Below, piece after piece: positions 44,131-64,000 of a stretch of DNA of 64,000 nt (positions are counted from its first letter, which is position 1; the number at the start of each line of letters is the position of its first letter). The position numbers were made by a program, and so were the translations under genes. Source of the DNA: a virus (Duplodnaviria > Caudoviricetes); IMG/VR virus record IMGVR_UViG_3300025018_000091. One strand, given 5' to 3'. Under the pieces are notes generated by a model that did not search any database, was not told where the DNA came from, and saw nothing but the letters and a program-made list of their open reading frames with translations.

Positions 44131-44135
44131 AGGTC

Positions 44136-45804: not shown

Positions 45805-45827
45805 TTGCCCCAGTTACTCGATGGGGC
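45805..45827 (-). promoter_or_regulatory. GCCCC-N13-GGGGC element, copy 15
   Basis: TTGCCCCAGTTACTCGATGGGGC. Confidence 0.7.
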
Positions 45828-45837
45828 GATTTTACAG

Positions 45838-45942: not shown

Positions 45943-45962
45943 TGCACCTTTCACATACCGGC

Positions 45963-46073
45963 TTGCCCCAGTTACTCGATGGGGCAAACTCATTCCGTCC
46001 GCAGCGTAACCATCATCGTCTCCGCTGCGTCGCATCGAACACAACCTACCTTGCCCCGCTTACTTGATGGGGC
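45963..46073 (-). promoter_or_regulatory. two GCCCC-N13-GGGGC elements (45963, 46051; copies 16-17)
   Basis: 23-mers; flank shared with 40060..40109. Confidence 0.7.
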
Positions 46074-46102
46074 GCGACACGCTTTTATGGGCGGTCTGTT
46101 GT

Positions 46103-46305
46103 TGGCTTAACTCTTGCTCCTTGCAATTAGCATGCCATGATGGGTGCGGGCGATTTGGGGCATCGCCGCGCGCCCATCTTGGCACGGCACGTTTGCACAT
46201 TGCGACGACCATGCCACATGCACAGGACAGCACAATTATTGTGTGAGCGTATTATTGTGTGAGTGGAATGACTTGGCACGCTTGCTTATTGCAAGACACG
46301 CGCCA
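46103..46305. promoter_or_regulatory. cluster of sigma54-type motifs (46103+, 46122..46137-, 46201..46216-, 46290..46305-)
   Basis: TGGCATGCTAATTGCA, TGGCGCGTGTCTTGCA. Confidence 0.6.
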
Positions 46306-46381
46306 ACAGGACGACAGACGCAAAAAAAATCCGCTTCCCGGTGGGAAGCGGACGAAGGGGCGGAACCCGCCCCTGCTGTTG

Positions 46382-47296: not shown

Positions 47297-47344
47297 GTTT
47301 TTTTCTTTCGGCTGGGAGAAAAAATTTTTGGTGTACTAGCTGGC

Positions 47345-47367
47345 TTACCCCCCTTACTTGATGGGGC
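47345..47367 (-). promoter_or_regulatory. GCCCC-N13-GGGG(T) element, copy 18
   Basis: TTACCCCCCTTACTTGATGGGGC. Confidence 0.65.
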
Positions 47368-47502
47368 AGGGCTGTTCCGTTCGGGACAAAATCCGCTGGG
47401 GACGGATCGCCCAGCTGGGACGGGGGTTGTGGTACGTGCTGTGTAATAGTGCGAGAAGTATGCCAAGGTGGTAGAAGGTGGCAGGATGTAGGACAAACCG
47501 GC

Positions 47503-47535
47503 TTGGCATGCTTGCTATTAGCGAGAATCATGCCA
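47503..47535 (-). promoter_or_regulatory. sigma54-type motif with inverted TTGGCA(C/T)GCTTGC
   Basis: near copy of 40174..40206 and 44525..44557. Confidence 0.55.
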
Positions 47536-47844
47536 CAATAATCCTACTATTCTAGGTTTTACCTGGCATGAAGTATCATTCTACTACTCCAGACTTTACT
47601 GATTAGGATGATACTCCAGACTTTTCCTGCAATGTAGTATCGTGCAATGATTCCGTTTTTTCTTTCTTTGTCGCGGAAAGAATAAAAAGAATAAAAAGAA
47701 GATAATTGGTAATAAGAAAAGAAAAAGAAAAGTTTGGAAGATGTAGTTGGCATAGCTCGTTTTGCTATATTGCAATTGGCATACCAACTACAGTATCCTA
47801 CCTTGGGGCTGATGTAGGATAAAAAGGTGGAGCGGGTGTCGCGT

Positions 47845-47860: not shown

Positions 47861-48186
47861 ACCCAAATAGGGGTCAAATTACTAAATCCATACTCTCCTT
47901 CCCCCTTCAACCCTAAATCCACATATCATAACATACTCTAATGTATTCTATAGTCATTCATAATACCTAATTTGAACTTCTGAAAGAGCCCCTAATAGGG
48001 TTATAGCAATATTATAAACACCCATAACCACTCTTTACCACTATTTGACACTCCAAACCACCCAATTTGAATTTCTAATTTCTTTCTATCTTCTTATCGC
48101 ATTATATTGGCTGTTTTTTGAGGCGATATATGTATGGTCAAAAAATAGGATATATAATAAGGCGGTATATATGGGAGGAGAGGCAA

Positions 48187-48834
48187 ATGAGAAAAGTGAT
48201 ATCTATATTAATGATGGTGATTGTAGTTTTATTTGTATCAGTGATGAGGGGATGCAAGTGTGAGGATAGTAATGAGGTTACGTATCATTATTTGACACAG
48301 GAGAGGGTAGATGTAGAGACAAAGGTAATGAAGGTATATACAGATTTATTCTTTACGGATATGGAGAGGCATATAATATGGAGGGCGATGGACAGGTGGA
48401 ATTTAGTAATGAATGGATATGTAAGAATGGAGGATGCAGGTGGATTTACGATGGAGATAGAGAAGATAAAGGAAGCTGAGGCAGGGGGAGCATATATAGT
48501 GATGAGATTAGGAGTAATGAGTCCATTAATAAAGAATGAGCCAGGGACAATGACATTAGGATTTACGGATGAGATAGGAGGGAAGTATTTATATTTGGTA
48601 CCTGACTATATAGGGGAGGAGAATTTATATGGGGTAGTATTACATGAGTTTGGACATTTAATGGGTGCTAGGCATACGAAGAATGGATTAATGAGGTTGG
48701 GATATAGTATAGGTAAGGAAGTATGTATAGATAAGGAGACAGTGGAGCAGATAGAGGGATATGATTGGAGGAGGATGAATTATTGTGTAAGGGATAATGC
48801 GGACAAGTTATTTGAGATAGAATTTAGTCCATAA
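48187..48834 (+). CDS. exported matrixin/metzincin-like zinc metalloprotease
   Basis: HEFGHLMGARH (HExxHxxGxxH) plus GLM Met-turn; signal or lipobox-like N-terminus; GGAGG RBS. Confidence 0.85.
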   Translation: MRKVISILMMVIVVLFVSVMRGCKCEDSNEVTYHYLTQERVDVETKVMKVYTDLFFTDMERHIIWRAMDRWNLVMNGYVRMEDAGGFTMEIEKIKEAEAGGAYIVMRLGVMSPLIKNEPGTMTLGFTDEIGGKYLYLVPDYIGEENLYGVVLHEFGHLMGARHTKNGLMRLGYSIGKEVCIDKETVEQIEGYDWRRMNYCVRDNADKLFEIEFSP

Positions 48835-49801: not shown

Positions 49802-50161
49802 TTATAGGAAGGTTAATATAGTTTTAAGTTTATCTGGAGCGGAAGAGGGGGTAATATTGATGGCGGAATTGAGTTTAGTAATGATATTGATTACATATTT
49901 TTCATTATTTTTAAATTTACTGATAGTGGTAGAATTTTCTAGGTGGTCTACGAGAATTTCGTAGCGGGAGTTATCCAAGTGGACTTTAAAGGAGATGAAG
50001 TTTTGAGGGATTTCTGTATCTTTTGGGTCATCGTTATCGAATTTTATTAATTTAGAATTAACTAAGATATAATCGCAGTGAGTACATTCCAGGGGATTTT
50101 CATAGAATTGGTTTAAGAATTCGAATTTAGTCAGGGTATTATTACAATAAAGGCAAATCAT
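49802..50161 (-). CDS. array protein (Zn ribbon plus tail)
   Basis: CLYC..CTHC; ends DKLKTILTFL*. Confidence 0.8.
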   Translation of the reverse strand: MICLYCNNTLTKFEFLNQFYENPLECTHCDYILVNSKLIKFDNDDPKDTEIPQNFISFKVHLDNSRYEILVDHLENSTTISKFKNNEKYVINIITKLNSAINITPSSAPDKLKTILTFL

Positions 50162-50505
50162 GAGAATGTGAGTATAGTTTTGAATTTACTATGAAAGTTA
50201 GATGGATTGAGATTGAATGTGGGGATTTCCATAATGGGGTAATGGTTATTATTGTAGAAAACGATTAATTTTGATTCTATAAAGATAATTGAGTAATAGT
50301 CATTTTTATTTGGGGTTAGGCAGATCCAGTTTAATTTATTATCATTATCTGGGAAGCAATAAGTGATTATGAAATTATTATTACAGGGATCGCATGTTCT
50401 GAGGTATGAAGATATTGATTTTGTTGGTTTATTGCAGAATTTACAATTTAGTGGTGGTGGGATACTTTGATTATTAATATCTTCAATTAATTGTTTTTTT
50501 GCCAA
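50158..50505 (-). CDS. array protein
   Basis: CKFC..CDPC; ends SKFKTILTFS*. Confidence 0.8.
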   Translation of the reverse strand: MAKKQLIEDINNQSIPPPLNCKFCNKPTKSISSYLRTCDPCNNNFIITYCFPDNDNKLNWICLTPNKNDYYSIIFIESKLIVFYNNNHYPIMEIPTFNLNPSNFHSKFKTILTFS

Positions 50506-50519
50506 TGTACTATAATCCT

Positions 50520-50891
50520 TTATGAGAAAATCACATAAGTTTTTAGTTTGCGGAAGAAGTTATTTGGAGTAATATCTAATATTCCTTTAACTTTAAAAAT
50601 AGATTCATAAATGGGTAGTGGTTTAGTGAAGCAGAGTAGTTCAGTATAATCGAGGTCATAGTTTATCATAAAGAAGTAGAATTTTTCAGCATTATCATTA
50701 AATCTATTGGGGTCGCAGATAGAGATAGAGATATATTGGATATCATCATTTTCTGGATATTGCCATTCATAGTAGACAGGTATTGGGCATTTGTGGCACC
50801 AGCCGATACTCATATTTAGATCTGGATGATTATTTTCATAAGTTGGATCTAAATCTGTGTTTACTTTATTGTGACAAAATTTACAATTCAT
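50520..50891 (-). CDS. array protein
   Basis: CKFC..CHKC; ends RKLKTYVIFS*. Confidence 0.8.
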   Translation of the reverse strand: MNCKFCHNKVNTDLDPTYENNHPDLNMSIGWCHKCPIPVYYEWQYPENDDIQYISISICDPNRFNDNAEKFYFFMINYDLDYTELLCFTKPLPIYESIFKVKGILDITPNNFFRKLKTYVIFS

Positions 50892-51232
50892 GAGAATAAT
50901 ATATATAATTTAACTGAATCAAAATTAGTGGGAGTTACTGGTAATCTTTTAGGGATTACGATTTGGGTTGCTGGGACATCGCTCATTGTAATAAATGTTT
51001 GAGTATTTGTTAGATGTACGATAACGATAGCTGATTTTCTTTTAAAGGTTAATTGTGTACTTTCTAGGGACCAACCGTTAGGTTTATCATTATCATCCAG
51101 ATGTCTAATAAATCTAAATATTGCATTACATTTAAAGCATTGGGATATTTGGAGATTTATTAAGTCTCCGGAGAACAAATAATTAATTGATTTTAGATCT
51201 GAATCACAATAGAGGCATTTTTTACAATTCAT
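50888..51232 (-). CDS. array protein
   Basis: CLYC..CFKC; ends DSVKLYILFS*. Confidence 0.8.
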   Translation of the reverse strand: MNCKKCLYCDSDLKSINYLFSGDLINLQISQCFKCNAIFRFIRHLDDNDKPNGWSLESTQLTFKRKSAIVIVHLTNTQTFITMSDVPATQIVIPKRLPVTPTNFDSVKLYILFS

Positions 51233-51693
51233 GAGAATACGATTAATTTTCTTAATTTATGAAATATATAGGTAGCTTGTTCATGCATATCGTTATTAGT
51301 TGATAAGGGAATGAATGGTACTTGTATTAAGGGGGGGTCAATAAAGTTTGATAGTAATTGTGTAAACTTTTCTTTTTTAGAATACTGTAAGCTAAACTTA
51401 CCCATATCATTTTGAAATAGCATAGGAGTTGATGGGGTAGCTTTAAGGATATATAGTTTATCTTTATGGATGAATTTTAGATTATAGTGGTCACAGATCC
51501 ATTCTTGATTAGAGTATGATGGAGGGACAATGACGCCGAAGTGACATCCACCAGTTGGGCATCTATCGCGACCATGCATATAGTCATAATTGACGCAATA
51601 AAGGTTCATACGATAGGAATCTGGGTTAACGTGGTTAACGTGATGGCGTTCATCGCGATTTTCCATTGTTGATAAGCAAGCTGGACATTTCAT
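51229..51693 (-). CDS. array protein
   Basis: CPAC; ends HKLRKLIVFS*. Confidence 0.8.
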   Translation of the reverse strand: MKCPACLSTMENRDERHHVNHVNPDSYRMNLYCVNYDYMHGRDRCPTGGCHFGVIVPPSYSNQEWICDHYNLKFIHKDKLYILKATPSTPMLFQNDMGKFSLQYSKKEKFTQLLSNFIDPPLIQVPFIPLSTNNDMHEQATYIFHKLRKLIVFS

Positions 51694-52055
51694 GAGAATA
51701 ACAATATAGTTTTGATTTTATTTGTTAAGTTCTGGGGAGTTACATAAATTATGTATGGAAAACTATTTACATTACTAGAGTTTCGCATAAATTGCATAAA
51801 CTTTTTATTTGAATAAGTTATTGTACTAATTGTACTTTTTCTAATTTCTGATTTATTATTTCTTAAATCTAATCTAAAATGATATGGACTATAGTTATGT
51901 AATGTTATATCGTTGATAGTTCCTCTATAAGCCCAATATCTAACATTACATATATTACATGTATAAACTTTGTGATTATAATCATAAGTATAATTAGTAA
52001 TATTACCATAAGTATATGGTTTAAGAGTTTTTCTGTTGCAATATTTACAAATCAT
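51690..52055 (-). CDS. array protein
   Basis: CKYC..CNIC; ends NKIKTILLFS*. Confidence 0.8.
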   Translation of the reverse strand: MICKYCNRKTLKPYTYGNITNYTYDYNHKVYTCNICNVRYWAYRGTINDITLHNYSPYHFRLDLRNNKSEIRKSTISTITYSNKKFMQFMRNSSNVNSFPYIIYVTPQNLTNKIKTILLFS

Positions 52056-52399
52056 GAGAATAACATATATAGTTTTACTTTTTGCGTTGCATTTTGTGGA
52101 GTGATATTTATTATTGAATTAAATGTTTTTTCAAATTTCTTTGTACCGATTCGATTCGAATCGATTTTATTGTAATTTACTTTTCCATAGTGAGTGCCTG
52201 TAATTTTTGTAGCATTGATAGCATGATATAAACTAATACCAAAATAATATTCATTTAAATAGAACCCAAAAGAAGTTTCTATTAAGTTATTATTTTTAAA
52301 ATAGAAACCACAATTACAATTTGGGCAAAACTTTTCATTGTTTTCAATATAAGATTGTAGTTCTATTAGATATGAGTCACAATATTTGCATTTAATCAT
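52052..52399 (-). CDS. array protein
   Basis: CKYC..CPNC; ends QKVKLYMLFS*. Confidence 0.8.
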   Translation of the reverse strand: MIKCKYCDSYLIELQSYIENNEKFCPNCNCGFYFKNNNLIETSFGFYLNEYYFGISLYHAINATKITGTHYGKVNYNKIDSNRIGTKKFEKTFNSIINITPQNATQKVKLYMLFS

Positions 52400-52740
52400 G
52401 AGAATAACAATATTGTTTTTAATTTAGATTTTGAGTTATTAATATCCATCTTAACAATATGATTAAGTGTTAGTATTCTTTTCCAAACGGTTGTATGATT
52501 TTTATTCTTCATTTTTCTTTCAAAATCAGGGAAACTGGGACCGCTTATATATGTTTTATCGTTCTTATAGTCTATAGTTAGAAAATATAATAATTTATTT
52601 AATTCTACATTGATATCGATTTCCAAGATATTATTATTACAATATAAGATGCTGGTCGAGCAAATTTCACATGAAATCATTCCAATATTATCATCATTAA
52701 CCAGATCGGCAATCAAGTTAGTACAATAAGGACAAATCAT
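52396..52740 (-). CDS. array protein
   Basis: CPYC..CEIC; ends SKLKTILLFS*. Confidence 0.8.
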   Translation of the reverse strand: MICPYCTNLIADLVNDDNIGMISCEICSTSILYCNNNILEIDINVELNKLLYFLTIDYKNDKTYISGPSFPDFERKMKNKNHTTVWKRILTLNHIVKMDINNSKSKLKTILLFS

Positions 52741-53105
52741 AAGAATACTACCAAAGTTTTAATTTTATTCAAAAGCTTTTCTTCTTCCATAGGTTGGATT
52801 GGTGGGCAAGTGAATATTGTTTTAAATAGCCACCGACCAGTTTTATATGCTTTACTGGCATGAGGGTGGTCTGGTGGTATATGTATGGCAACTTTTGTTT
52901 CTTTTTTATTTGTTCTAACTCTATAAGGAGGGACAATCATATCGACATGTTCTTCAACAATGGAGAAATGAAATTTTCTTTTACTGGCTTGGAATTTTAT
53001 ATATTTAGGACACCAATAGTAACCATCATATCCTTTGAGGGTTTTGCCGCACAAAGGACATGTCATTGTAATCTTTTCTTTAGTTTTATATCTTTTACGT
53101 TTCAA
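52737..53105 (-). CDS. array protein
   Basis: CPLC; ends NKIKTLVVFL*; start may be ATG 53066. Confidence 0.8.
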   Translation of the reverse strand: MKRKRYKTKEKITMTCPLCGKTLKGYDGYYWCPKYIKFQASKRKFHFSIVEEHVDMIVPPYRVRTNKKETKVAIHIPPDHPHASKAYKTGRWLFKTIFTCPPIQPMEEEKLLNKIKTLVVFL

Positions 53106-53452
53106 GAGAACACCGTGTACAATTTTAATTTATTTTTTATTAAATATTCAGCTTCATATGGAGAAAAGAACTTTAAATGATTAAGTGTTAGTATTATCTT
53201 CCATTTAGATTTAGGAAATACGGGATGACGCAGTTTGCTAACAATAGTTTTATTTTCTTCTATACGCTGAGTTATTCTATAACGATAATCACCAACTACT
53301 ATACTTAATCTAGATTCTGTAAGAATTGCCTCTTTTGTTCCTGGTTTAATTAAACAATACCAAGTATTACAATGCGGGCAATGCATTGATCTAGTTGTGT
53401 GTGAAATATCAAAATCTTTATTGCAGTTTCTGCAATGAAATAGAATATCCAT
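53102..53452 (-). CDS. array protein
   Basis: CRNC..CPHC; ends NKLKLYTVFS*. Confidence 0.8.
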   Translation of the reverse strand: MDILFHCRNCNKDFDISHTTRSMHCPHCNTWYCLIKPGTKEAILTESRLSIVVGDYRYRITQRIEENKTIVSKLRHPVFPKSKWKIILTLNHLKFFSPYEAEYLIKNKLKLYTVFS

Positions 53453-53453
53453 A

Positions 53454-53867
53454 TTAACTGAATGTTATTAGTAATTTAACGTTATTAAAAATTGTATCAA
53501 ATTGAGGTGCCAATGGTTCTTTAAGTTTTAGATTATAGAATTTAGGAATTTCCGTTGTACTGCCAGAATCACATTCATCATATCTAATTTTATATAGAGT
53601 TGTTTTCATTTCTTCTCTATTAGATTGCAAGTAATATGTTTTGCCATTTCGTCTAATGGTGGCAAAATAACTATGCACAATACCTTTTTGTTTAGGTATT
53701 GTGATTATATATAGATCTTCACTTTCATCATTTGAATCAAAAGAATCGTCCTCATCTCGATAGAAACAAGCCCATCTTGTATGATCCTTACGAAAAGAAG
53801 ATGTTTTTATCAGTGGATTGCCGCTCAAATGACACAATATAGGATCCATTCCTGATAATATAATCAT
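53454..53867 (-). CDS. array protein (degenerate Zn ribbon)
   Basis: ends NNVKLLITFS*. Confidence 0.75.
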   Translation of the reverse strand: MIILSGMDPILCHLSGNPLIKTSSFRKDHTRWACFYRDEDDSFDSNDESEDLYIITIPKQKGIVHSYFATIRRNGKTYYLQSNREEMKTTLYKIRYDECDSGSTTEIPKFYNLKLKEPLAPQFDTIFNNVKLLITFS

Positions 53868-53885
53868 TTAACAGCGCGTGTCAAA

Positions 53886-54263
53886 TTATAAAAATAGCAA
53901 ATATGTTTTTAATTTGTGTTCGATATTATCTGGAGTAATCTTAGGAGTATTATCAACACTTATTAAAGTGTGTTCTAATTCAAACAATGATTCTTCTAGA
54001 TATTCATAAGTTAATTCATCTTCTGCGGCGTTTATATATCTTATTGTACTTCTATTACTTAAATCATTAAATGACCAATTATAAATTTTACCATTAATCT
54101 GTTTATATATAGAATAAAAAGCAAGTTTACCACTTTTGAAGTAAATATATTTTATCATACATTTTTTACAACTTAGGATATCCAATCCTTCACGCTCATA
54201 AAATATGATTTTATGTTCGTTCAAATTAGATTCGCAAAATAAACATTTTTTAGTCTCATTCAT
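53886..54263 (-). CDS. array protein
   Basis: CLFC..CKKC; ends HKLKTYLLFL*; start re-set to MNETKK. Confidence 0.8.
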   Translation of the reverse strand: MNETKKCLFCESNLNEHKIIFYEREGLDILSCKKCMIKYIYFKSGKLAFYSIYKQINGKIYNWSFNDLSNRSTIRYINAAEDELTYEYLEESLFELEHTLISVDNTPKITPDNIEHKLKTYLLFL

Positions 54264-54294
54264 AATTTTGTATACTACTATCAGGAGAATTACT

Positions 54295-55122
54295 ATGTCA
54301 TTATTTCCAAATATCAACTCACCAGCAAAGTTTTTAACTACTAAATCTTGGATTATAAATAGATTTTTTACCAACTATGGTTACATTGAAGATGGTTCTG
54401 GCAATGATCTATTATATTCATCCAGTCCAATGGTTACTACTCCAATTAGAAATACATCTTCATTAAAGAATTGGTTTAAGCCAATTAGTAATCAATATCA
54501 TATTGGTTCTTGTGTAGCTAATGCGGCAGCTGATTCATTTGAAGCGATGTTAGCTAGAAGAAAAAACTGTGATCCATCATTAATTGAAGATCTATCTAGA
54601 TTGTTTATTTATTGGAATGCTAGAAATTTAGCTAATCCACCTATTTATAATGTAGATAAGGGTTCGAGTATAAGATTAGCATTTGATAGTATAGCAAGAT
54701 ATGGTGTTCCTAGTGAGAAAACATATCCTTACATTTTTAGTAAGGTAAACGATAGACCAACTATATTATCTTATCGTGAAGCTATTAAAAATAGGATAAG
54801 TAAATTCTATAGAATAGATGGTAAGGGTGATGTAAGGATATTACAGATAATGCAAGCATTATCGGCGGGATATCCTGTTGTATTTGGAACTAAAGTTACT
54901 GAAAGTTTTAAACAAGTAAAGAGTGATGCTATTGTTTTTTATCCAAATGGAGGATGGATAGGTGGTCATGCTATGGTTATAGTAGGATGGTCAGAATCTA
55001 AACAAGCATTTGAAGTAAGAAACTCTTGGGGCGAAGATTGGGGAGTTAAAGGATATTGCTGGATGGATAAAGGCTATATTACGGCAAGTGTAACTGCAGA
55101 CATTTGGGTTCCAACAGTTTAA
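54295..55122 (+). CDS. papain-family (C1A) cysteine protease
   Basis: QYHIGSCVANA, GGHAMVIVG, VRNSWG catalytic motifs; AGGAG RBS. Confidence 0.92.
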   Translation: MSLFPNINSPAKFLTTKSWIINRFFTNYGYIEDGSGNDLLYSSSPMVTTPIRNTSSLKNWFKPISNQYHIGSCVANAAADSFEAMLARRKNCDPSLIEDLSRLFIYWNARNLANPPIYNVDKGSSIRLAFDSIARYGVPSEKTYPYIFSKVNDRPTILSYREAIKNRISKFYRIDGKGDVRILQIMQALSAGYPVVFGTKVTESFKQVKSDAIVFYPNGGWIGGHAMVIVGWSESKQAFEVRNSWGEDWGVKGYCWMDKGYITASVTADIWVPTV

Positions 55123-55131
55123 GGAGAAGTT

Positions 55132-55485
55132 ATGAAGCTACTAAATATTATGGTTATTCTTTTGAGTTTGGTTGGATGCGCTCATTGTGGACCAAAAGAT
55201 GAGCCCAATATTCGTACACAACCTGGTATTGAATATTGTGGAGCTATGTGTCAAATCTTTACAGACAAACAATGTACTGGATACTATGAAGATATTGAGA
55301 TTAATTGTTTTTCAGACCCAGCATATATGGATATGAAACAATGTGAAGCTACAGAAGATGGTATGGCTGTTTTAACTTGTACAGAATTTTGTGAATATCA
55401 AATGAAGAATTCAGTTCAACTTAATCCTCAATGCTTATCTGAAAACTTATTAGTATGTTCAGAGATAGAAGAGATATGTCAATAA
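55132..55485 (+). CDS. Cys-rich lipoprotein
   Basis: LLSLVGC lipobox; 11 Cys; AGGAG RBS; co-oriented with the protease. Confidence 0.75.
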   Translation: MKLLNIMVILLSLVGCAHCGPKDEPNIRTQPGIEYCGAMCQIFTDKQCTGYYEDIEINCFSDPAYMDMKQCEATEDGMAVLTCTEFCEYQMKNSVQLNPQCLSENLLVCSEIEEICQ

Positions 55486-55914
55486 TCAAGAGAATAGAAG
55501 TAACAACTTAATCTTATTTTTTATTTTATCTGGCAATTGGTGATGGTTATCCCAAGGGATATTTACTACGCCATCAATTGCCAATATTCTATTGTAGATA
55601 AAAGAATTTGCTTTATCTTTAGTTTTAATCATTCTACCTTGAGGAGATGGTTTATAACTATAAATAGCTGGTCTTTTTTCAATTTTATATACTTGTGTTT
55701 TCTTTTGAAGATAGTTGATATGTATTTTATATGGCAAAGAAATAACTGTTGCGTCCTGAAGTTTACCTAAATTATAAACAATATACGTAGCATGAGTCAT
55801 TGGAATCATTGAATTATATTCTGGAACTGGTTCTCTTTTATCGGGGCATGACCATATAGTATTACTATATGATGGTCGCATTTCCTTATTACATATGGGG
55901 CATTGAAAATTCAT
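55486..55914 (-). CDS. array protein
   Basis: CPIC; ends NKIKLLLLFS*. Confidence 0.8.
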   Translation of the reverse strand: MNFQCPICNKEMRPSYSNTIWSCPDKREPVPEYNSMIPMTHATYIVYNLGKLQDATVISLPYKIHINYLQKKTQVYKIEKRPAIYSYKPSPQGRMIKTKDKANSFIYNRILAIDGVVNIPWDNHHQLPDKIKNKIKLLLLFS

Positions 55915-55924
55915 TTCATTTAAC

Positions 55925-56266
55925 TCAGGAGAATAATATTATTGTTTTGATTTTATTGTCAATATATTCATCAGTGACATTTACCAGATTTATTGCTTTA
56001 TATATATTGCATATTTCTATTCCAGTAAGATTTTCAGATATAATAGTTTTATTATAACAGTAACTTATATTTACTATATATTCTTTTGTTTCTATACATA
56101 TTCCTTCTATTTCTTCATCATCTCCTGATGGGGTACATTTATAGCTAAAAGAAAATTTATGACAGTCATTGCAGAACTTATTGAAGTAGAATCTTTTATT
56201 TTCTTCATTACCAGTTTGGAGTTTGCTCCAATTATTGGAATGGCATCTTGGGCATTCGTTATACAT
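55925..56266 (-). CDS. array protein
   Basis: CPRC..CNDC; ends NKIKTIILFS*. Confidence 0.8.
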   Translation of the reverse strand: MYNECPRCHSNNWSKLQTGNEENKRFYFNKFCNDCHKFSFSYKCTPSGDDEEIEGICIETKEYIVNISYCYNKTIISENLTGIEICNIYKAINLVNVTDEYIDNKIKTIILFS

Positions 56267-56273
56267 AATAAAC

Positions 56274-56651
56274 TCAAATGAATAGTGAATAAATTTTAAT
56301 CTTTTTCTTTATATCTTCCACATTATCTTCAACTAAAAATAGTGGATTAGTAATTTGGGCTATTTGTCTAGAGTAATAAGTTGCGGAATTACTATATTTT
56401 TCATTTAGATAAACTTCTGTTTGTTCTTTTGTTGACCAAATCATTATTGGAGGAATAAAATAGTGAAATAGGACTTCTCCACTCTTATATCTTATAAACT
56501 CATAGTGAGAGTATCCAACATTATCTACTCTATAATAATTATCTTTTTCTCTGCAAAAATAGATTTTACAAACTGAGTTATTAGTTTCATTCATATATGA
56601 ATTGCATATTGGGCATTTCATATAATCTACTGTTTCGTCTGGATATTTCAT
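56274..56651 (-). CDS. array protein
   Basis: CPIC; ends KKIKIYSLFI*. Confidence 0.8.
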   Translation of the reverse strand: MKYPDETVDYMKCPICNSYMNETNNSVCKIYFCREKDNYYRVDNVGYSHYEFIRYKSGEVLFHYFIPPIMIWSTKEQTEVYLNEKYSNSATYYSRQIAQITNPLFLVEDNVEDIKKKIKIYSLFI

Positions 56652-57043
56652 AGGAATAAAGCTAAAGTCTTTATTTTGTTATGTGCTTTTGTTAGATCTG
56701 GAAAGTCCCAAATGATTAATCTATTCTTAAGAAGAATCTTTTCTGTAGATTTTTCTAAAGAGTAATATTCTAAAGAGGTTGAGTGAGATACATAGTTAAC
56801 AATTATAGAATAACTTTTACCTGAGAAATCTACTTTTTCGTATAGTAAATCTCCATATAGTGATGCTACTTGAAAATATAAATGAGTTGGTAGATTTTTG
56901 CCAATATCAGCAATATCAGAATGATTACATATCGATTCTACAAATGAGAAATTCTTTTCATTTAAGACCACACATGGTTTTCTAATATATGTAGAATATA
57001 TTAAATCTTTTTTGCAAACTGGACAAACTTCATATGTTTTCAT
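56648..57043 (-). CDS. array protein
   Basis: CPVC; ends NKIKTLALFL*. Confidence 0.8.
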   Translation of the reverse strand: MKTYEVCPVCKKDLIYSTYIRKPCVVLNEKNFSFVESICNHSDIADIGKNLPTHLYFQVASLYGDLLYEKVDFSGKSYSIIVNYVSHSTSLEYYSLEKSTEKILLKNRLIIWDFPDLTKAHNKIKTLALFL

Positions 57044-57409
57044 TTAACTAAACGTTATAAATAACGATACTTTCTCTTTTAGTTTCTTAAGTTCTGGAAA
57101 ATCTGGTTCAATTAATTTGGGAACTTGGATATTCATATTACATTTACTATTTACTAACAACACAATCCTTGACTTCTTATTATAGAAGTCGAGGAATATA
57201 AATCGGCTATAATCTGGCACTAAAGATATTTTAAGTAAATCTACTTCATTGGTAGATTCATCTACATATATTTGTAATGAATGATTTGTGCCATTACATG
57301 TTCGTTCACTATAGCTAGATGATTTGCCGACAAATAATAGAAATTTATTGTATCTCCTAATTCCTGTCATTAAATCACCGCAAATAGGGCAATGCCAAGT
57401 CTCCTGCAT
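57044..57409 (-). CDS. array protein (EPD subfamily)
   Basis: CPICGD; IEPDFP; ends EKVSLFITFS*. Confidence 0.8.
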   Translation of the reverse strand: MQETWHCPICGDLMTGIRRYNKFLLFVGKSSSYSERTCNGTNHSLQIYVDESTNEVDLLKISLVPDYSRFIFLDFYNKKSRIVLLVNSKCNMNIQVPKLIEPDFPELKKLKEKVSLFITFS

Positions 57410-57450
57410 ACACTAATATATAACCACCTATAATACAAAAAATTAGGTGA

Positions 57451-57858
57451 TCAAGAAAAAGCTTTTATATTCAGGAGTCTGGTAATTACATTATATGCCG
57501 ATAAAACATCATACCATTCTATAATAGAATTAATTACGCAAATATCATTTGTTACATAATCGGGATCCTTATCTAAGTCTATAAATGGTACTATTTTAGA
57601 TAGATAGGTTAGATTCTTTTTTGTATTATATCCGAGAATGTAATTTTCTTCATCTATTTTCAAAATAATCTGTTCTGATATACATTTTCCTTCTTCATAT
57701 GTGCAGACATACCTTGTGTATGGTCGTAAATCACAACAAGATTCACAAGTATACACATTAGTTGTGCCGACAGATAAATCTAAAAATGTTCTATGAGCCA
57801 TAAATCCGCCACATATCAAACATGCTTTTGATTCTAAGATTTTAGGAGAAGATAACAT
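57451..57858 (-). CDS. array protein (variant tail)
   Basis: CLICG..CESC; ends RLLNIKAFS*. Confidence 0.75.
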   Translation of the reverse strand: MLSSPKILESKACLICGGFMAHRTFLDLSVGTTNVYTCESCCDLRPYTRYVCTYEEGKCISEQIILKIDEENYILGYNTKKNLTYLSKIVPFIDLDKDPDYVTNDICVINSIIEWYDVLSAYNVITRLLNIKAFS

Positions 57859-58168
57859 ATGTATTTAATTTCTGTGCTAGTTTCTCGTATAGATAAAAAT
57901 CTGGTTCAAACCAAGGTAATTCATATGATGATTTTCCATCCAATCTTTCTACAATCAATTTTTTAATTTTAAATAACCATGTAAAATTATTTCCATGTAA
58001 ATCTTTTGCTCTTAAAGATATCGAAAGTAAATCATCCCAATCATTAAAAGTGAATACAATTATATGATGTTTATTAGAACATATTTTTTCCTGTTTATAA
58101 TAATTAGATTGAGACGTTCTTAAGGTTTTATCGCAGATTGGACAGGTTAATAAATTAGCTTTAATCAT
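57842..58168 (-). CDS. array protein (LPWFEPD subfamily)
   Basis: CPIC; ends QKLNTYVIFS*. Confidence 0.8.
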   Translation of the reverse strand: MIKANLLTCPICDKTLRTSQSNYYKQEKICSNKHHIIVFTFNDWDDLLSISLRAKDLHGNNFTWLFKIKKLIVERLDGKSSYELPWFEPDFYLYEKLAQKLNTYVIFS

Positions 58169-58554
58169 TAGCTAAAACACATATAAGTTTTGATTTTGTT
58201 TAATAATTTAGGAAAATCAGATAAATCTGGTTCAAACCAGGGCAATTTTGTTGTACTTTGATATTCCCAACCTGGAGTCATAGTGGTAGGACCAACTGTT
58301 CTGCCTTTTATTAAAATAGATGGTCCTATAAATATACGTCGTTCAACAAAATTCCAACTTACACTAAACTTAGATTTTTTACTATTTTTTAAATCTGTAT
58401 AGCTCATAACTAATAAATTGTAATTTTCGTCTATTACCAATTTAAATATATGATTTAATCTTTTGTCACAAGCTTTAGTAGATTTAGCTATAGCAGGGAA
58501 GAAATCATTAACTAAGATATCTCCACATATAGGACATTTACTAGGAATTATCAT
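58168..58554 (-). CDS. array protein (LPWFEPD subfamily)
   Basis: CPICGD; ends NKIKTYMCFS*. Confidence 0.8.
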   Translation of the reverse strand: MIIPSKCPICGDILVNDFFPAIAKSTKACDKRLNHIFKLVIDENYNLLVMSYTDLKNSKKSKFSVSWNFVERRIFIGPSILIKGRTVGPTTMTPGWEYQSTTKLPWFEPDLSDFPKLLNKIKTYMCFS

Positions 58555-58895
58555 GAGAATAACACGTATGTTTTTAATTTGTTCAAAAAAGATTTCTTAC
58601 TTTTTATATCTGGTTCAAACCAAGGTAGAATTGTAGTTGTGTCAAATTTACCAACTGGTACTTTAGATGGTGCAAACCATGTCTGTCTGTTAGTAAAATT
58701 CCAATAAAATATAGCGAAATCTAAAACTATTTCAACTAAATGAACTTCTTCTTTAGAATCAAGACAACAATAATATTTATGATCTAATCTTTTATTACAC
58801 GTTTTAGTTAAAGCACCAGATTTACTCATTAAGTTATTTTTATATTCATTCAAAAGAATATCATTACATAGTGGGCAACGAATTGGTATTATCAT
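58551..58895 (-). CDS. array protein (LPWFEPD subfamily)
   Basis: CPLCND; ends NKLKTYVLFS*. Confidence 0.8.
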   Translation of the reverse strand: MIIPIRCPLCNDILLNEYKNNLMSKSGALTKTCNKRLDHKYYCCLDSKEEVHLVEIVLDFAIFYWNFTNRQTWFAPSKVPVGKFDTTTILPWFEPDIKSKKSFLNKLKTYVLFS

Positions 58896-59281
58896 GCAAA
58901 TAAAATGAATGTTTTGATTTTACGAATAATTGATTCCCTATCATCATAATTAGGAATAATTGTTTTATTAATAACATGACGATGAGTCTTACTATTTTTA
59001 GTCCATACTTGAGAATTTCCCTCATCATAATTAATTTTAAGGTACAATTTTTCTCCGTTATGGTCTCGAAGACTTAATTTAACTTTGGATAGTTCTTTTA
59101 CACATTTACCATTTTCATCCATAATGAAATTACCATTTTCATCTTTTACATCAGACAATCTTTCTGAGAAGAAGTGGTCATATTTTTTACAGAAGTAATC
59201 GGTATAAAGTACAGTACGTTCTGCCTCTAAATTACTACTACAAAAGGGGCACAGCCGCGTTTCCATGATATATAACTCCAT
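58892..59281 (-). CDS. array protein
   Basis: CPFC; ends RKIKTFILFA*. Confidence 0.8.
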   Translation of the reverse strand: MELYIMETRLCPFCSSNLEAERTVLYTDYFCKKYDHFFSERLSDVKDENGNFIMDENGKCVKELSKVKLSLRDHNGEKLYLKINYDEGNSQVWTKNSKTHRHVINKTIIPNYDDRESIIRKIKTFILFA

Positions 59282-59524
59282 ATGAAAGCAATAGTTTTGC
59301 GAGATAAAAAAAATAAAGAGATATACTTTCTAATACACCCTAAATCTGAGTTTGAATTTTACTCTGAAAATGGTCTAGATCTTTATATTACAATAGGAAA
59401 GAATAATATAAATAAATCTGCATTATGTGTAGGTGGTGCAGTTTATGGTTACTATAATGATGATATGTTAGCCGAAACTGTAATTAAGATTATAGAAGAC
59501 CAAGATGAGTGCAAGCCGAGTTGA
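59282..59524 (+). CDS. hypothetical protein
   Basis: track ORF, divergent, overlaps the next + gene. Confidence 0.5.
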   Translation: MKAIVLRDKKNKEIYFLIHPKSEFEFYSENGLDLYITIGKNNINKSALCVGGAVYGYYNDDMLAETVIKIIEDQDECKPS

Positions 59525-59957
59525 GCATAAGTTCGAACAAACATTAGATTTTAGTAAGCCCAAACTTTCTAAAAGATATGTCTCCAGAGTTCTAAAGACA
59601 ACGAATTTTAACAACGTCGTTATCGATGCCAGTACGGGAAACATAACCCGCATCGAACACGAAGTCAAGGTGGGCATGTACGTAATTCACGTTATTTTAC
59701 CGTCAGAGCGGATCGGCAAATCTTTTAAATGCTTACATGATTATAAAAAAATGCACACAGAAATATCCAAGGTTAATACTACTAAAGAACAAAAGAAAAT
59801 AAATTTATTAAGAGATAATCTATTTGTTAATCAAAGATGGGTTCATAAAAATCATCGTCCTATAAATCATACTTGTGGCGGTTGGATTAAAATTAATGAC
59901 CTTGTAAATGCTATACTATATTGCAATAGAATAAGTAGACTAAAAGCATTCTTATGA
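59505..59957 (+). CDS. hypothetical protein with variant tail, no Zn ribbon
   Basis: ends CNRISRLKAFL*. Confidence 0.7.
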   Translation: MSASRVEHKFEQTLDFSKPKLSKRYVSRVLKTTNFNNVVIDASTGNITRIEHEVKVGMYVIHVILPSERIGKSFKCLHDYKKMHTEISKVNTTKEQKKINLLRDNLFVNQRWVHKNHRPINHTCGGWIKINDLVNAILYCNRISRLKAFL

Positions 59958-60515
59958 AAATAAGATATATGTTCTCATCTTATTAACTAGCTTTTCTTTT
60001 GTCTTAAATCTATAAAGTGGAAGAAGTGGTATATTCATCTTCATCATCTTATTTGTGTTTTTATCTAAAACATTTATTTTAGTTTCATTTTCAGAATACT
60101 CTGACATTAAGCTATAAAATACATTTTTTGATGTTGTAGATAATACTTCTCGTAATATAGTAATTGGTCTAATAAACATCTTTCTATCAAATTGAAGCGG
60201 ATTACTATATATAAAGTTCTGACAAAACTTACAGTTGCTAGAGATATATAGCTCTCTACACCCTAAATAAGAAATAAATTCTTCCATATTAGATACTTTA
60301 AACTTATTATCACTTATAGATATCTGAAGATTTAGGCTATGAGAATACTTTATTCTAAGTGTGACATCAATTATATTATTTTTTAAAAACTGAGGTAGCT
60401 TTTGAAATTGGTTAGATTCAGGGTTGTTACTTAATACATTAATGGTCACTTTCTTTCCACAAGAAAAACAAGGACCATTATAAAGAATGAAATCTTTTAC
60501 CGTAAAATTCTTCAT
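59952..60515 (-). CDS. array protein (long form)
   Basis: CFSC..CKFC; ends NKMRTYILFS*. Confidence 0.8.
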   Translation of the reverse strand: MKNFTVKDFILYNGPCFSCGKKVTINVLSNNPESNQFQKLPQFLKNNIIDVTLRIKYSHSLNLQISISDNKFKVSNMEEFISYLGCRELYISSNCKFCQNFIYSNPLQFDRKMFIRPITILREVLSTTSKNVFYSLMSEYSENETKINVLDKNTNKMMKMNIPLLPLYRFKTKEKLVNKMRTYILFS

Positions 60516-61603
60516 TTTGCAGCACGTAAATAAGCCTCTATAAATGGCTGTAAGTCACCATCCATTACTATATCAGTATTTCTATTTTCATAATCTGTTC
60601 TATGGTCTTTTACTAATTGATATGGATTGAAATAATACGTTCTAATTTGGCTTCCAAAAGCAATATCTTGTTGAGCAGATAGTTGTGCTTCTTTTTCAGA
60701 ATTCTTTTTCTTCATTTCTATATCATATAGTTTACTTTTTAGCATTTTTAAAGCTGTTTTCTTATTAGACAACTGATCTCTTTCAGTTCTAACAAGAATA
60801 TTGATGCCAGATGGAATATGTTTTAATCTAATGGCGCTTGCCACTTTGTTTACATTTTGACCACCAGGACCACCAGCAGTTTGAGCAGTAATCTCGATAT
60901 CTTTATCCTCAATCTTGATATTGATTGTATCCTCAACATCTGGTAATACTGATACTGCCGCAAAAGAAGTATGTCTGGCATCTCCTGCATTAAATGGAGA
61001 ATTTCTTATTAATCTATGTACGCCAGATTCTCCTTTTAGAAAACCATAAGCATAGGGACCTTCAATTCTATATGATACTGAGTCGGTACAAATGGAACTA
61101 TGTTCGTCACATGGTTTATTATCTAAACATTCCACATTTAAATTATAACTATCCGCCCATCTCAGGTACATACGAGATAGCATCGTTACCCAGTTAGCGG
61201 CTTCTAGACCCCCTGCACCCGCGTTAATCGTTAATATAGCGGGACTGTTAGCCATAGGATCGGTCATCATATGAAGAAATTCCATATCAGAAAGTTCTTT
61301 ATAGAGATGTGAGATTTCATCATGTTGTTCTGGTAATTCTTCTGGAAGAATATCTACCAGTTCTTCATAAAAATGCGTCAAATTTAAGAACGTCTCAAAT
61401 TTATCTACAAAATCTGATAATCTTTGTCGTTCTTTCATCATTGCTCCAGCTTGTTTAGGATCATTCCAGATATTTGGAGCTAACATTTTATTGTCTATTT
61501 CGTCTATTTTTGTAACATATTTTTCATAATCAAACATGTTACGTATTGAATTTATCTTATCGCGACATAACGATACTAATTGTTGTGTTTCCATGGTTTT
61601 CAC
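60512..61603 (-). CDS. prfB: peptide chain release factor 2, no internal frameshift
   Basis: GGPGGQNVNK, SPF specificity tripeptide (RNSPF), GAGGLEA, ESGVHRL, FGSQIRTY. Confidence 0.95.
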   Translation of the reverse strand: MKTMETQQLVSLCRDKINSIRNMFDYEKYVTKIDEIDNKMLAPNIWNDPKQAGAMMKERQRLSDFVDKFETFLNLTHFYEELVDILPEELPEQHDEISHLYKELSDMEFLHMMTDPMANSPAILTINAGAGGLEAANWVTMLSRMYLRWADSYNLNVECLDNKPCDEHSSICTDSVSYRIEGPYAYGFLKGESGVHRLIRNSPFNAGDARHTSFAAVSVLPDVEDTINIKIEDKDIEITAQTAGGPGGQNVNKVASAIRLKHIPSGINILVRTERDQLSNKKTALKMLKSKLYDIEMKKKNSEKEAQLSAQQDIAFGSQIRTYYFNPYQLVKDHRTDYENRNTDIVMDGDLQPFIEAYLRAAK

Positions 61604-62013
61604 GCAAAGGTAAGGGATAATTTAACTTTTTTCTTCAGTCTTGTTAGTTTAGGATAATCTGGCTCTATTATAAATGGTAATCCTAGAGATCTAGATTCAG
61701 TATTAGCTTCTCTTGTCCATATTAGAGATCTATTCTCCAAGTATACGTTAGAGAACATAACGTATTTGTTTCCGATATTAATTGAGAATTCGTCAAATAA
61801 AACTACATCAGGGTTAAGTTTGTCAGAAAAATACCCATAATAATGAAGCGGATCTTTTGAAGAGGGATGAAAATGTGTTGCACTTATTAAAATTAATTTA
61901 TTTCCGGGAAAATATCTTTTAAGAAAACCGACACCATCTCTAGCCTCCTCTATAAATAACTTATTATTACATACCGGACACGTATTGTTTTTTATATTAG
62001 TTAATGGAATCAT
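61600..62013 (-). CDS. array protein (EPD subfamily)
   Basis: CPVC; IEPDYP; ends KKVKLSLTFA*. Confidence 0.8.
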   Translation of the reverse strand: MIPLTNIKNNTCPVCNNKLFIEEARDGVGFLKRYFPGNKLILISATHFHPSSKDPLHYYGYFSDKLNPDVVLFDEFSINIGNKYVMFSNVYLENRSLIWTREANTESRSLGLPFIIEPDYPKLTRLKKKVKLSLTFA

Positions 62014-62681
62014 GAGAATAGTACATATGTTTTAATCTTTTTGATTAAATAATCTTTGTCTAACATTTTATATAAATCAAGTTTAGGTAATGTTGCAATA
62101 GTATTTTTACTATCTAATAAATAAGTATTTGGTGAATCTATTGAAGATATTAAGCTAAATTTTTTACTATCTATAATGACAGTAACTGCTTCGGCACTAA
62201 TGACCAATGGATAAATTCTTCTTGTTAATGTTCCTAATACTAAATTAGAACTTTGATATCTGTATTTGAATCCACTACGCAAACAATCTCTGTTATCACA
62301 TTTTTTCAATAAAAACATATCATATTCCAATATGATTTTTTGAATATTTTTAGTTAAACCATATGTTGTAAGTTGATTATTATATATATTTACAGAGAAA
62401 ACTTTAACTTTATGTTCTTCAGGATCATAACATGACCAACATGATAATTCGTCTTCTTTTAATCTAGAAAAATAACCAACATGATACAACTCATGCTCAA
62501 AACTATATCGTGATGGTTCCTCTGGATATGTAATACAATATAGTTTGGTAAGAGGATCTTGATTTATAATATTTCTACTATTTAAACTTAGTTCTAATTT
62601 ATTATTACAAAATGGACATTTATCCATTAATGATATAAAATCATGAATATTTTCGAAACGCATTATGACATTAAAATCCAA
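62010..62681 (-). CDS. array protein (long form)
   Basis: CPFC..CDNRDC; ends KKIKTYVLFS*. Confidence 0.8.
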   Translation of the reverse strand: MDFNVIMRFENIHDFISLMDKCPFCNNKLELSLNSRNIINQDPLTKLYCITYPEEPSRYSFEHELYHVGYFSRLKEDELSCWSCYDPEEHKVKVFSVNIYNNQLTTYGLTKNIQKIILEYDMFLLKKCDNRDCLRSGFKYRYQSSNLVLGTLTRRIYPLVISAEAVTVIIDSKKFSLISSIDSPNTYLLDSKNTIATLPKLDLYKMLDKDYLIKKIKTYVLFS

Positions 62682-63359
62682 TTATCCAACCTAGAAAATA
62701 GTTTATCTCTATCCTTTAGGTTAAAATTAGGTCTGCTTTTTAGCAAAGGTAATTGCTTTTCAAAAATGTTTGGAGAATAGTCTTTATCTTCAAGTTGCTC
62801 TTTTGAGCATGTATAATACCACAACATAGTATTATTATTTTCATAATCTATATTAACCATATAAACTTTTTCTAGATCATCGACCTTTCTGGTTAATGAA
62901 AAAGATTCGTCAGAATTTACTATTTTGTTTGCACTTTTTGATGTAGGTCTTATAACAATCTTTCCTGATTTAGTTTTTACACAATCTAATAATGTTGTCG
63001 TTCTATAGTAACATCCATAATATAAATAAATTTCATAATACAAGCCTTGCTTTTTCTTTAAAACCGTTATCATTGCACAAGAAAAATAGATACATTTGGT
63101 TTTCTAATACTTTATTTTTTAGTTTATCTGAACTAAAAATAATTTCCGTTCCCGTTTCGGTAAAATCCATATCTATATATTCATCATTGAATTCTGAATT
63201 AATACACTTAAACTGTTCAAATCTATATGAACGACTAGACGATCCTAAAATCGGAATACCTCTAAAACACATTGAATCTAGCAATTGTAAATATAATGTT
63301 AAAGATTCTCCACATATTGGACAGCTCTTATTAAAATCTAAAAATTTATTAAATCTCAT
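62663..63359 (-). pseudogene. array protein (long form) split across two frames near 63033..63073
   Basis: 63033..63359 has N-terminal CPICG; 62663..63073 has the tail SRLDNWILMS*. Confidence 0.6.
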
Positions 63360-63369
63360 TTTTTTTCTC

Positions 63370-63993
63370 TTACGTAAATGTTACGACCGTTAATATTCTG
63401 TTTTTTATTTTATCTTTATTAAACAGTTCGAAATTTATAAAAGGTGTTTCTATTGGATCACCATCTGGATTTTTATTTGATACGATTCTTGTTGTATTAT
63501 AAATATAATCGCTTTGGACCCAATACTTACCAATATTAATAGAATCAAAATACATAAAAAATGGTCTAATTGTGGTATACTCTATAAAATCTGTTCCAAC
63601 ATACTTATTAGATAGTCTATCACAAGTAATAAAGTTTGAATTAACAGTATAATTTAAACCACATTTTTTATTATCACAACTTAAAGAGATATGTGGCTTA
63701 TGCATTTCAAAAAGTTCAATAGTATTATTTCCACTAGAAGTGTGAGCTGGCTGTTTTTCTATAAATAACTCGTTCGATAATATATTTAACTTACACTTTA
63801 CGTCTACAATTGAGTGTCTATTAACATTTTTAAGACTAAATAGAAAATAATTATCTACTAATCTCGATTTAAATGTTGGTATCTCTCTACGTATTACAAA
63901 ACTAGTAAAAACAGGAGAAAGTTTTGAACCACAAAACACACATTTATCTCTAAAATCTATAAATTTCCATATATTTGAAAACACATTTTTCAT
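63370..63993 (-). CDS. array protein (long form)
   Basis: CVFCG..CDNKKC; ends NRILTVVTFT*. Confidence 0.8.
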   Translation of the reverse strand: MKNVFSNIWKFIDFRDKCVFCGSKLSPVFTSFVIRREIPTFKSRLVDNYFLFSLKNVNRHSIVDVKCKLNILSNELFIEKQPAHTSSGNNTIELFEMHKPHISLSCDNKKCGLNYTVNSNFITCDRLSNKYVGTDFIEYTTIRPFFMYFDSINIGKYWVQSDYIYNTTRIVSNKNPDGDPIETPFINFELFNKDKIKNRILTVVTFT

Positions 63994-64000
63994 GAAAATA
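63990..64000 (-). CDS. 3' end of a further array gene continuing beyond the window
   Basis: xTA TTT TCA TGA (..FS*) overlapping ATG 63993. Confidence 0.55.

Follow-up and report, generated by a model that had tools for sequence, protein, structure and literature searches.

We analysed a 64,000-nucleotide stretch of DNA, referred to here as the window, from a virus of the Caudoviricetes (Duplodnaviria; IMG/VR record IMGVR_UViG_3300025018_000091). Its minus strand carries, between positions 49802 and 63993, a tandem array of small zinc-ribbon proteins, which we call family A and which end in the same basic-hydrophobic tail at the exact C-terminus. The open reading frame (ORF) listing and the codon and junction tables give 27 such genes, 26 intact and one split by a frameshift; an earlier reading made from the sequence alone (the sequence-only reading) had described about 28, and its array and shared tail stand with the count slightly lowered. 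The only minus-strand gene of this interval outside the family codes for the release factor RF2 (60512-61603). Family members combine an N-terminal zinc ribbon with a C-terminus of the form [KR]-h-x-x-h-x-x-F-[S/L/A/I/T]-COOH (h, hydrophobic), and all members in the window but one (53454-53867) open with a CxxC knuckle. In its strict form the tail pattern closes 23 ORFs of the block at their exact C-terminus, and two elsewhere in the window. The features of the array are as follows:

49802-50161, minus: short member of 119 residues, last gene of the array; ends KLKTILTFL
50158-50505, minus: short member of 115 residues; ends KFKTILTFS
50520-50891, minus: short member of 123 residues, ITPxN type; ends KLKTYVIFS
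50888-51232, minus: short member of 114 residues; ends SVKLYILFS
51229-51693, minus: member of 154 residues; ends KLRKLIVFS
51690-52055, minus: short member of 121 residues; ends KIKTILLFS
52052-52399, minus: short member of 115 residues; ends KVKLYMLFS
52396-52740, minus: short member of 114 residues; ends KLKTILLFS
52737-53066, minus: short member of 109 residues from the ATG at 53066 (ORF open to 53105); ends KIKTLVVFL
53102-53452, minus: short member of 116 residues; ends KLKLYTVFS
53454-53867, minus: member of 137 residues without the Cys knuckles, tail retained; ends NVKLLITFS, Ser encoded by AGT
53886-54263, minus: short member of 125 residues from the ATG at 54263; ends KLKTYLLFL
55486-55914, minus: member of 142 residues; ends KIKLLLLFS
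55925-56266, minus: short member of 113 residues; ends KIKTIILFS
56274-56651, minus: short member of 125 residues; ends KIKIYSLFI
56648-57043, minus: short member of 131 residues; ends KIKTLALFL
57044-57409, minus: short member of 121 residues, the best-conserved ortholog group (nine relatives, 35-48% identity); ends KVSLFITFS, Ser encoded by AGT
57451-57858, minus: member of 135 residues; ends RLLNIKAFS, a 'KAF' tail variant shared with class C
57842-58168, minus: short member of 108 residues, LPWFEPD type; ends KLNTYVIFS
58168-58554, minus: short member of 128 residues, LPWFEPD type; ends KIKTYMCFS, Ser encoded by AGC
58551-58895, minus: short member of 114 residues, modelled with AlphaFold; predicted zinc ribbon, six strands and helix 100-113
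58892-59281, minus: short member of 129 residues; ends KIKTFILFA
59505-59957, plus: class C protein of 150 residues without a zinc ribbon, antisense in the array, conserved as a single-copy gene across 23 related contigs; ends RISRLKAFL
59952-60515, minus: long form of 187 residues with an ortholog in nine of nine relatives compared; ends KMRTYILFS, its start overlapping the RF2 stop (ATGA)
60512-61603, minus: phage RF2, a context gene and not a family member, with PCRF and RF-1 domains and SPF and GGQ motifs; coupled on both sides
61600-62013, minus: member of 137 residues; ends KVKLSLTFA
62010-62681, minus: long form of 217-223 residues; ends KIKTYVLFS
62663-63359, minus: frameshift-split long form (ORFs 63033-63359 and 62663-63073); tail variant RLDNWILMS
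63370-63993, minus: long form of 207 residues; ends RILTVVTFT

The three or four long forms of the sequence-only reading are thus three intact ones (187, 207 and 217-223 residues) and the split gene. The latter consists of ORFs of 108 and 136 residues that overlap by 41 nucleotides and, in alignment, cover residues 3-109 and 105-236 of an ortholog that is intact at 236 residues (L011:5518-6228). The same split is seen in contigs L004 and L005; the gene may have decayed to a pseudogene or use a programmed shift, or the contigs may share an error of assembly. Contig L004 is identical to the window and reaches 10 kb beyond its end; just past that end it carries two or three further family members and an antisense tail-bearing gene of another class, class D.

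A single hidden Markov model (HMM) recovers every intact member of the array, contrary to the earlier description of a barely alignable middle. The long forms match it by their C-terminal 100 residues, and the only family ORF of the window that it misses is 63033-63359, the N-terminal half of the split gene. In an alignment of 23 short members three Cys are common, the fourth ligand is either C or H, a turn of the form N-x-[ST] lies centrally between strands, and an EPD or TPxN cap precedes the final helix; the two sub-lineages noticed earlier by their (I/V)TPxN and LPWFEPD motifs are confirmed in the alignments. Two zinc knuckles are evident, with C7, C10 and C29 of the HMM at 4.5-4.6 bits and the fourth ligand being C in 150 sequences and H in 231, giving the pattern CPxC ... 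C-x2-C or C-x5-H. In the AlphaFold model of 58551-58895 the knuckle sites carry short strands, and the best structural look-alikes of residues 1-56 are the Com and LysW zinc ribbons. These comparisons indicate that the array is a single homologous fold family rather than a collection of unrelated modules. A profile search of 1.84 billion representative proteins returned 1,178 clusters (50% identity) from metagenomes at E 1e-3 or better, the top 150 matches being nearly all 100-135 residues long and aligned end-to-end. Iteration of the HMM over all the DNA analysed gathered 576 unique members, at 25-35 copies per genome. Pfam and PHROGs gave nothing meaningful for the members (best PHROG E about 1e-3, for one or two of 23 members) and the source databases name them only 'hypothetical protein', with no Pfam domain, in agreement with the sequence-only reading, which did not recognise the family.

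The tail stands out by both its conservation and its register. Across 150 distant representatives the last twelve residues form the logo L-x-x-K-[IL]-K-T-Y-h-h-F-S, K(-9) being present in 144 of them and F(-2) in 142. F occupies -2 in 533 of the 576 unique members and L, M, Y or W in nearly all others, and about 98% of the sequences terminate exactly one residue after this position; two run beyond the tail and about ten have lost it. Each of the last nine positions carries 1.4-4.0 bits, on all faces of the helix and with the polar ones included, versus 0.2-1 bit in most of the core; the polar K-9, K-7, T-6 and S-1 are conserved as strongly as the hydrophobic positions. In the complete 481-kb genome of a relative, the strict tail ends 30 of 691 ORFs, compared with 0.10 expected from the frequency of the motif at internal positions.

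The same ending is also present on at least four other protein types that, by the sequence comparisons made, have no detectable homology to family A. Two classes, C (23 orthologs) and D (11), are homologous to each other (hhalign 96.5%), and all 34 of their proteins end at F-[L/S/I/F] at the exact C-terminus. Against family A these classes reach hhalign values of only 0.1-0.2%, and a deeper profile gives at best P 0.005. Two further tail-bearers lie off the array in the window:

6719-7168, minus: protein of 149 residues without a zinc ribbon; ends KRIINLIIFS, and its alignment to the family covers the last 17 residues only
6278-6613, minus: protein of about 102-111 residues without a zinc ribbon; ends KLSKLIVFI, a tail also retained by the ortholog of the 481-kb relative

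For 6278-6613 and its ortholog, 6719-7168, and two further proteins of the 481-kb relative, the alignment with family A is restricted to the last 12-17 residues. That relative has four tail-bearing ORFs outside families A and C, against 0.1 expected. All tail-bearers have in common the skeleton h(-12), K/R(-9), h(-8), h(-5), F(-2), which amounts to a single hydrophobic stripe. The genes at 6278-6613 and 6719-7168 adjoin each other and an RNA ligase gene, and the 6278-type ortholog with the same tail is located at 329434-329805 of the 481-kb relative.

Translation of the array is coupled, as had been proposed from its stop/start overlaps: 12 ATGA overlaps lie fully inside the window and one at its edge (at least 14 had been claimed), in addition to a single GTGA and a single TTGA. 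Genes of the block stop at TGA in 17 cases and at TAA in 11, with no TAG. Of 439 family genes, 57% have an ATGA overlap at their end, and TGA is the stop in 69%, versus 33% in other ORFs of at least 150 residues. An ATGA overlap forces TCA for the last Ser, and TTC for Phe is enriched alongside. Where there is no overlap, all six codons encode the last Ser (TCA 31, TCT 30, TCG 27, TCC 21, AGT 18, AGC 9), and the AGT at 53454 and 57044 and the AGC at 58168 reported earlier are correct in the codon table. Codon usage for K, T, Y, L and I is the same in tail and core, and synonymous identity between the paralogs of the window is 0.49 versus 0.39 expected at positions -1 to -3, 0.58 versus 0.47 at -4 to -9, and 0.48 versus 0.50 at -10 to -14. 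The frequency of F-2 is 92%, 91% and 79% in genes that stop at TGA, TAA and TAG, respectively, and genes with no overlap downstream show the same tail conservation, among them the gene at the end of the array and the class C and D genes, which run antisense. Given the codon usage, the near-expected synonymous identity and the independence from the stop codon, the constraint acts on the peptide and not on the DNA, which bears out the conclusion of the sequence-only reading. A scan for sigma-70 promoters found sites no more frequent than in shuffled sequence.

The array belongs to a larger cassette that is found in the same gene order in nine or more huge-phage contigs of 118-498 kb (IMG/VR and Joint Genome Institute metagenomes). 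The order is dUTPase, p174, p245, a long form, class D (antisense), p216, two long forms, RF2, two long forms, class C (antisense), 10-30 short forms and an antisense metallopeptidase. About 10 of the 24 window members compared have reciprocal best matches that are collinear in at least four relatives at 24-48% identity; between the same genomes RF2 has 51-68% and p216 55-68% identity. The distal part of the array is without clear orthologs. Thus the array combines an old part with one in turnover and is not uniformly hypervariable, and the library of hypervariable modules that had been envisaged gives way to one homologous family with a partly stable gene order. RF2 has no internal frameshift site, and is embedded in the array and translationally coupled in every relative examined. 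The most conserved gene of the cassette, p216 (L004:8688-9338, about 700-1300 nucleotides past the window end), reaches 58-68% identity over the clade and has kinase-like motifs, SSGSSRIVY, LKLAKND and PVLIDAGLT (glycine-loop-like and LID-x-G-like), and a weak PDB match to the effector kinase SteC (E 0.043); its N-terminal helix motif recurs in p245 and p247. An 8.5-kb contig labelled as a giant-virus metagenome-assembled genome, L002 (IMGVR_UViG_GVMAG-M-3300004806-22_000001), carries the RF2-plus-array cassette with a local run of members that have a K-L-I-P-F-S tail variant, and is probably a huge-phage fragment. The metallopeptidase that caps the arrays of relatives is M10/M12-like, and its counterpart in the window is 48118-48834. 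In the middle of the array, antisense to it at 54205-55485 on the plus strand, lie a papain-family (C1) peptidase and a Cys-rich, lipoprotein-like protein of 117 residues; the papain-like insertion is absent from the relatives examined and confined to the lineage of the window.

Structure prediction suggests that the tail is not a floppy appendage and instead forms the last two and a half turns of a C-terminal helix built into the domain. The AlphaFold2 model of the family A member 58551-58895, from a 23-row alignment, is compact (predicted local distance difference test, pLDDT, 77; predicted template modelling score, pTM, 0.65), with zinc-ribbon hairpins, six strands and one helix. Likewise, the AlphaFold model of the class C protein 59505-59957, from 31 rows, is an alpha/beta domain with pLDDT 88.8 and pTM 0.83. 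For family A, the best matches were at E 0.27 in a Foldseek search of the PDB, E 0.09 in the AFDB clusters, Z 5.7 (LolB) in VIA wide, and a template modelling score of at most 0.50 in the ESM Atlas, whose look-alikes did not exceed chance level. For class C, the best Foldseek match was at E 0.13 and the best VIA match at Z 3.8, several RWD-like rows standing at Z of about 3. None of these matches is convincing for either model, which does not prove that the folds are new. Mean-field direct coupling analysis of 494 sequences left W63-L101 as the one plausible, weak sheet-helix coupling; a few pairs with position 102 also remain, and all of these are perhaps sub-lineage effects. The top tail-core pairs of that analysis, Cys-Phe, were rejected as artefacts, a contingency test being unsupportive (Fisher p 0.39).

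Protein look-ups place the genes of the window on a contig of 444,127 bp. As is typical of a large phage, the window encodes an RNA ligase and radical S-adenosylmethionine enzymes, homing endonucleases of the LAGLIDADG and HNH types, the release factor and five tRNAs. The sequencing runs containing this DNA are aquifer and groundwater metagenomes, all of them DNA runs with no RNA run listed, and 50,697 records of deposited phages gave no match to the window by megablast (DNA) or tblastn (protein). G+C content is 26-31% at 50-64 kb versus up to 54% at 40-48 kb. Genetic code table 11 gives a clean reading of the array, and alternative codes (TAG as Q, table 4, TAA recoded) brought no clear gain in the ORF-poor 18-48 kb. 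The region 39700-47600 holds small minus-strand ORFs at a G+C of 0.47-0.54, at least 12 copies of the hairpin motif TTGCCCCGGTCACCTGATGGGGC, and two intergenic families of palindromic TGGCAC...GTGCCA motifs in six and four copies; these motifs may have a regulatory role or correspond to small structured RNAs. Five tRNA genes (Asn, Ala-AGC, Lys twice and Thr) are dispersed among short ORFs at 28183-38316, only the two tRNA-Lys genes passing the Rfam gathering threshold.

What might hold the end of a helix so constant on proteins that otherwise diverge? The reading that we tentatively prefer, at a little below an even chance, is that the built-in C-terminal helix offers its end as an unvarying contact surface, common to adaptors that have otherwise diversified. 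Family A is a single expanded family of small soluble phage proteins, each with a zinc ribbon, a predicted beta-meander and a predicted C-terminal amphipathic helix, and its genes form a translationally coupled operon in which the RF2 gene of the phage is embedded. In this reading the end of the helix, together with the free carboxylate, would dock each paralog and a few unrelated tail-bearers onto one common partner or onto each other. The sheet and loops, which vary, would determine what each copy targets, the whole being an adaptor set, probably for host take-over. The exact register, the conservation on all helix faces and the spread to unrelated proteins together argue for an extra shared constraint on the helix end, be it a common partner or mutual assembly. 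Across members the core has a net charge of about -5 to +4 and an isoelectric point of 5-9.7, a spread more in keeping with a variety of protein targets than with uniform nucleic-acid binding. A stronger version, in which five or more families without detectable homology, some 35 proteins per genome in all, use the helix end as a true docking or assembly module for one hub, seems to us possible, if short of likely. Candidates for such a hub are a phage or host machine, the kinase-like p216 (as a candidate partner only), the RF2 of the cassette, or the tail-bearers themselves.

Several observations weigh against a contact surface or in favour of its main rival, a purely structural helix. Here family A would be an ordinary paralog family whose tail is a core helix that nucleates the folding of a small domain, with the surface free to vary and no common partner; the other tail-bearers would be explained by very distant ancestry or by the capture of 3' gene ends through recombination. 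We regard this as possible, if short of likely. In the family A model the tail lies in the helix 100-113, at pLDDT 81-84 the most confident part, and the last element of the class C model is a 20-residue helix (130-149) at pLDDT 89-97; an ordinary core helix would be expected to give the same confident picture in compact models. This comes close to the outcome, a tail helix packed into a shared core fold, that the sequence-only reading had itself named as the mark of an ordinary paralog family. The pattern is amphipathic, with hydrophobic periodicity continuing 14-20 residues upstream of the tail and an EPD/TPxN helix cap preceding it. One HMM spans all intact members, about 10 of 24 have collinear orthologs, and the W63-L101 coupling, albeit weak, would join sheet and helix. 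The end-to-end alignment of family A with classes C and D at P 0.005 is weak, and leaves room for distant kinship and an inherited helix. The zinc-ribbon array of Bacillus phage G likewise keeps a conserved C-terminal helix. Moreover, no enzyme or virion protein of the complete 481-kb relative bears the tail, which is limited there to the cassette and a few small proteins. Nor was a tail partner identified: the common hub proposed earlier found no candidate among sliding clamps, as PF00712, PF02768 and PF09116 (beta-clamp and gp45-type) had no match in that genome, although divergent clamps could escape such a search.

Yet structural helices tolerate a few extra or missing terminal residues, whereas about 98% of 576 family members and 34 of 34 class C and D proteins stop at exactly the same point; in phage G the helix is trailed by 0-5 variable residues. 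A structural role also does not account readily for polar positions that are as conserved as the hydrophobic ones, or for the same skeleton on proteins whose cores are not detectably related. These features lead us to retain the contact surface as the preferred reading. What survives of the shared module of the sequence-only reading is the occurrence of one ending on proteins without detectable homology; its picture of a loose tag on unrelated hypervariable modules does not.

A third explanation, which we consider unlikely, is that the basic-hydrophobic C-terminus directs the proteins to the inner surface of the host membrane, in the manner of the C-terminal amphipathic helices of MinD and FtsA. 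The extreme C-terminal position, the two Lys with a hydrophobic run, and the presence of the tail on unrelated soluble proteins would all suit such a role. However, the hydrophobic moment of the last 11-18 residues is 0.26-0.33, just slightly above the 0.19-0.25 of internal windows (95th percentile 0.41-0.51), a difference that does not settle the matter, and helices that target membranes tend to be conserved only loosely and to lack order when not membrane-bound, whereas this tail is strictly conserved and modelled as packed. Less probable still is a shared degron, by which the hydrophobic C-terminus would route all the proteins to one protease, either of the host ClpXP/ClpAP type or of the phage, and so limit the time window of their action. 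An exact non-polar ending on many co-transcribed proteins and the peptidases that flank or interrupt the array could be taken in its favour; but known C-terminal degrons are exposed and unstructured, the flanking metallopeptidase ORF opens with a hydrophobic N-terminal stretch and could be exported, the papain-like peptidase, which has no such stretch from its called start, occurs only in the lineage of the window, and nothing links the tail to any protease. Finally, a nascent-peptide or DNA-level element, in which the last 9-12 residues act in the ribosome with RF2 for ATGA re-initiation or the junction DNA is kept by gene conversion or coupling, draws on the RF2 inside the array of every relative, the frequent ATGA overlaps and TGA stops, and the biased last two codons at overlaps, but is very improbable given that the constraint lies on the peptide, with F-2 conserved alike for TGA, TAA and TAG stops, the tail alike in genes without a downstream overlap, and codon usage and synonymous identity near expectation at -3 to -9.

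These proteins are of wider relevance as several percent of huge-phage genes go to arrays of small nameless proteins, and family A is among the largest such sets encountered here. If its tail is a common contact surface, a hub targeted by a whole clade of huge phages could be found through it, and the variable parts would map what is attached to that hub. If the helix is only structural, the family offers a clean case of a small fold that diversifies round a fixed zinc site and one helix. In either case a family model is merited, and would name hundreds of 'hypothetical proteins'.

Among known systems, short hydrophobic motifs at the extreme C-terminus dock the T4 proteins gp33, gp55 and gp43 on the sliding clamp, and are extended and acidic-hydrophobic; the clamp-binding consensus is QL[SD]LF in bacteria or of an acidic LDFL type. 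The likeness is that unrelated phage proteins carry a common short hydrophobic C-terminal motif. Unlike these, the tail of family A is basic-hydrophobic and modelled as a helix, and it lacks the clamp consensus. In poxviruses, a C-terminal PRANC/F-box-like domain plugs many paralogous ankyrin-repeat proteins into the host SCF ligase. There too a large virus has variable paralogs with one constant C-terminal element, a resemblance by analogy only; PRANC is a domain of roughly 60 residues with a known partner, whereas the constant part of family A is a helix end of 12-16 residues, and Pfam scans of seven family A members and of class C and D proteins (E up to 0.1) detected neither PRANC (PF09372) nor F-box. 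Both the T4 and the poxvirus systems are therefore functional analogies, whose defining features family A does not have; were the tail a true docking module, the array would be the first case in a phage of what the ankyrin-PRANC adaptor libraries are in poxviruses.

The closest comparison is with Bacillus phage G, in which a lineage-specific expansion of zinc ribbons, about 35 copies, has been described and proposed to comprise transcription factors or DNA-binding proteins (Iyer et al. 2021, PMC7824862). Both cases are tandem arrays of some 30 small zinc-ribbon paralogs in a phage of roughly 0.5 Mb, with knuckles followed by strands and then a conserved C-terminal helix (of the YWKENDRYL type in phage G). 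The profile-profile match between the two is confined to 28 zinc-knuckle columns (hhalign 79%). A family A1 profile covers positions 5-82 in phage G, at E 2.8e-6 for one gene of 105 residues and E 0.002 or worse for the array, and never extends over the tail. The phage G copies differ in being about 200 residues long with an additional N-terminal domain and in having no RF2 in the array. Their C-terminal motif, YWK(E/D)ND(R/K)YL, is absent from family A; they end in YWKENDRYLAKILK plus 0-5 residues, whereas family A ends in K-h-K-T-Y-h-h-F-S with nothing after it. The isoelectric points of 5-9.7 in family A also argue against uniform DNA binding. We therefore regard family A as new in itself but as belonging to a known kind of system, with an unusual feature.

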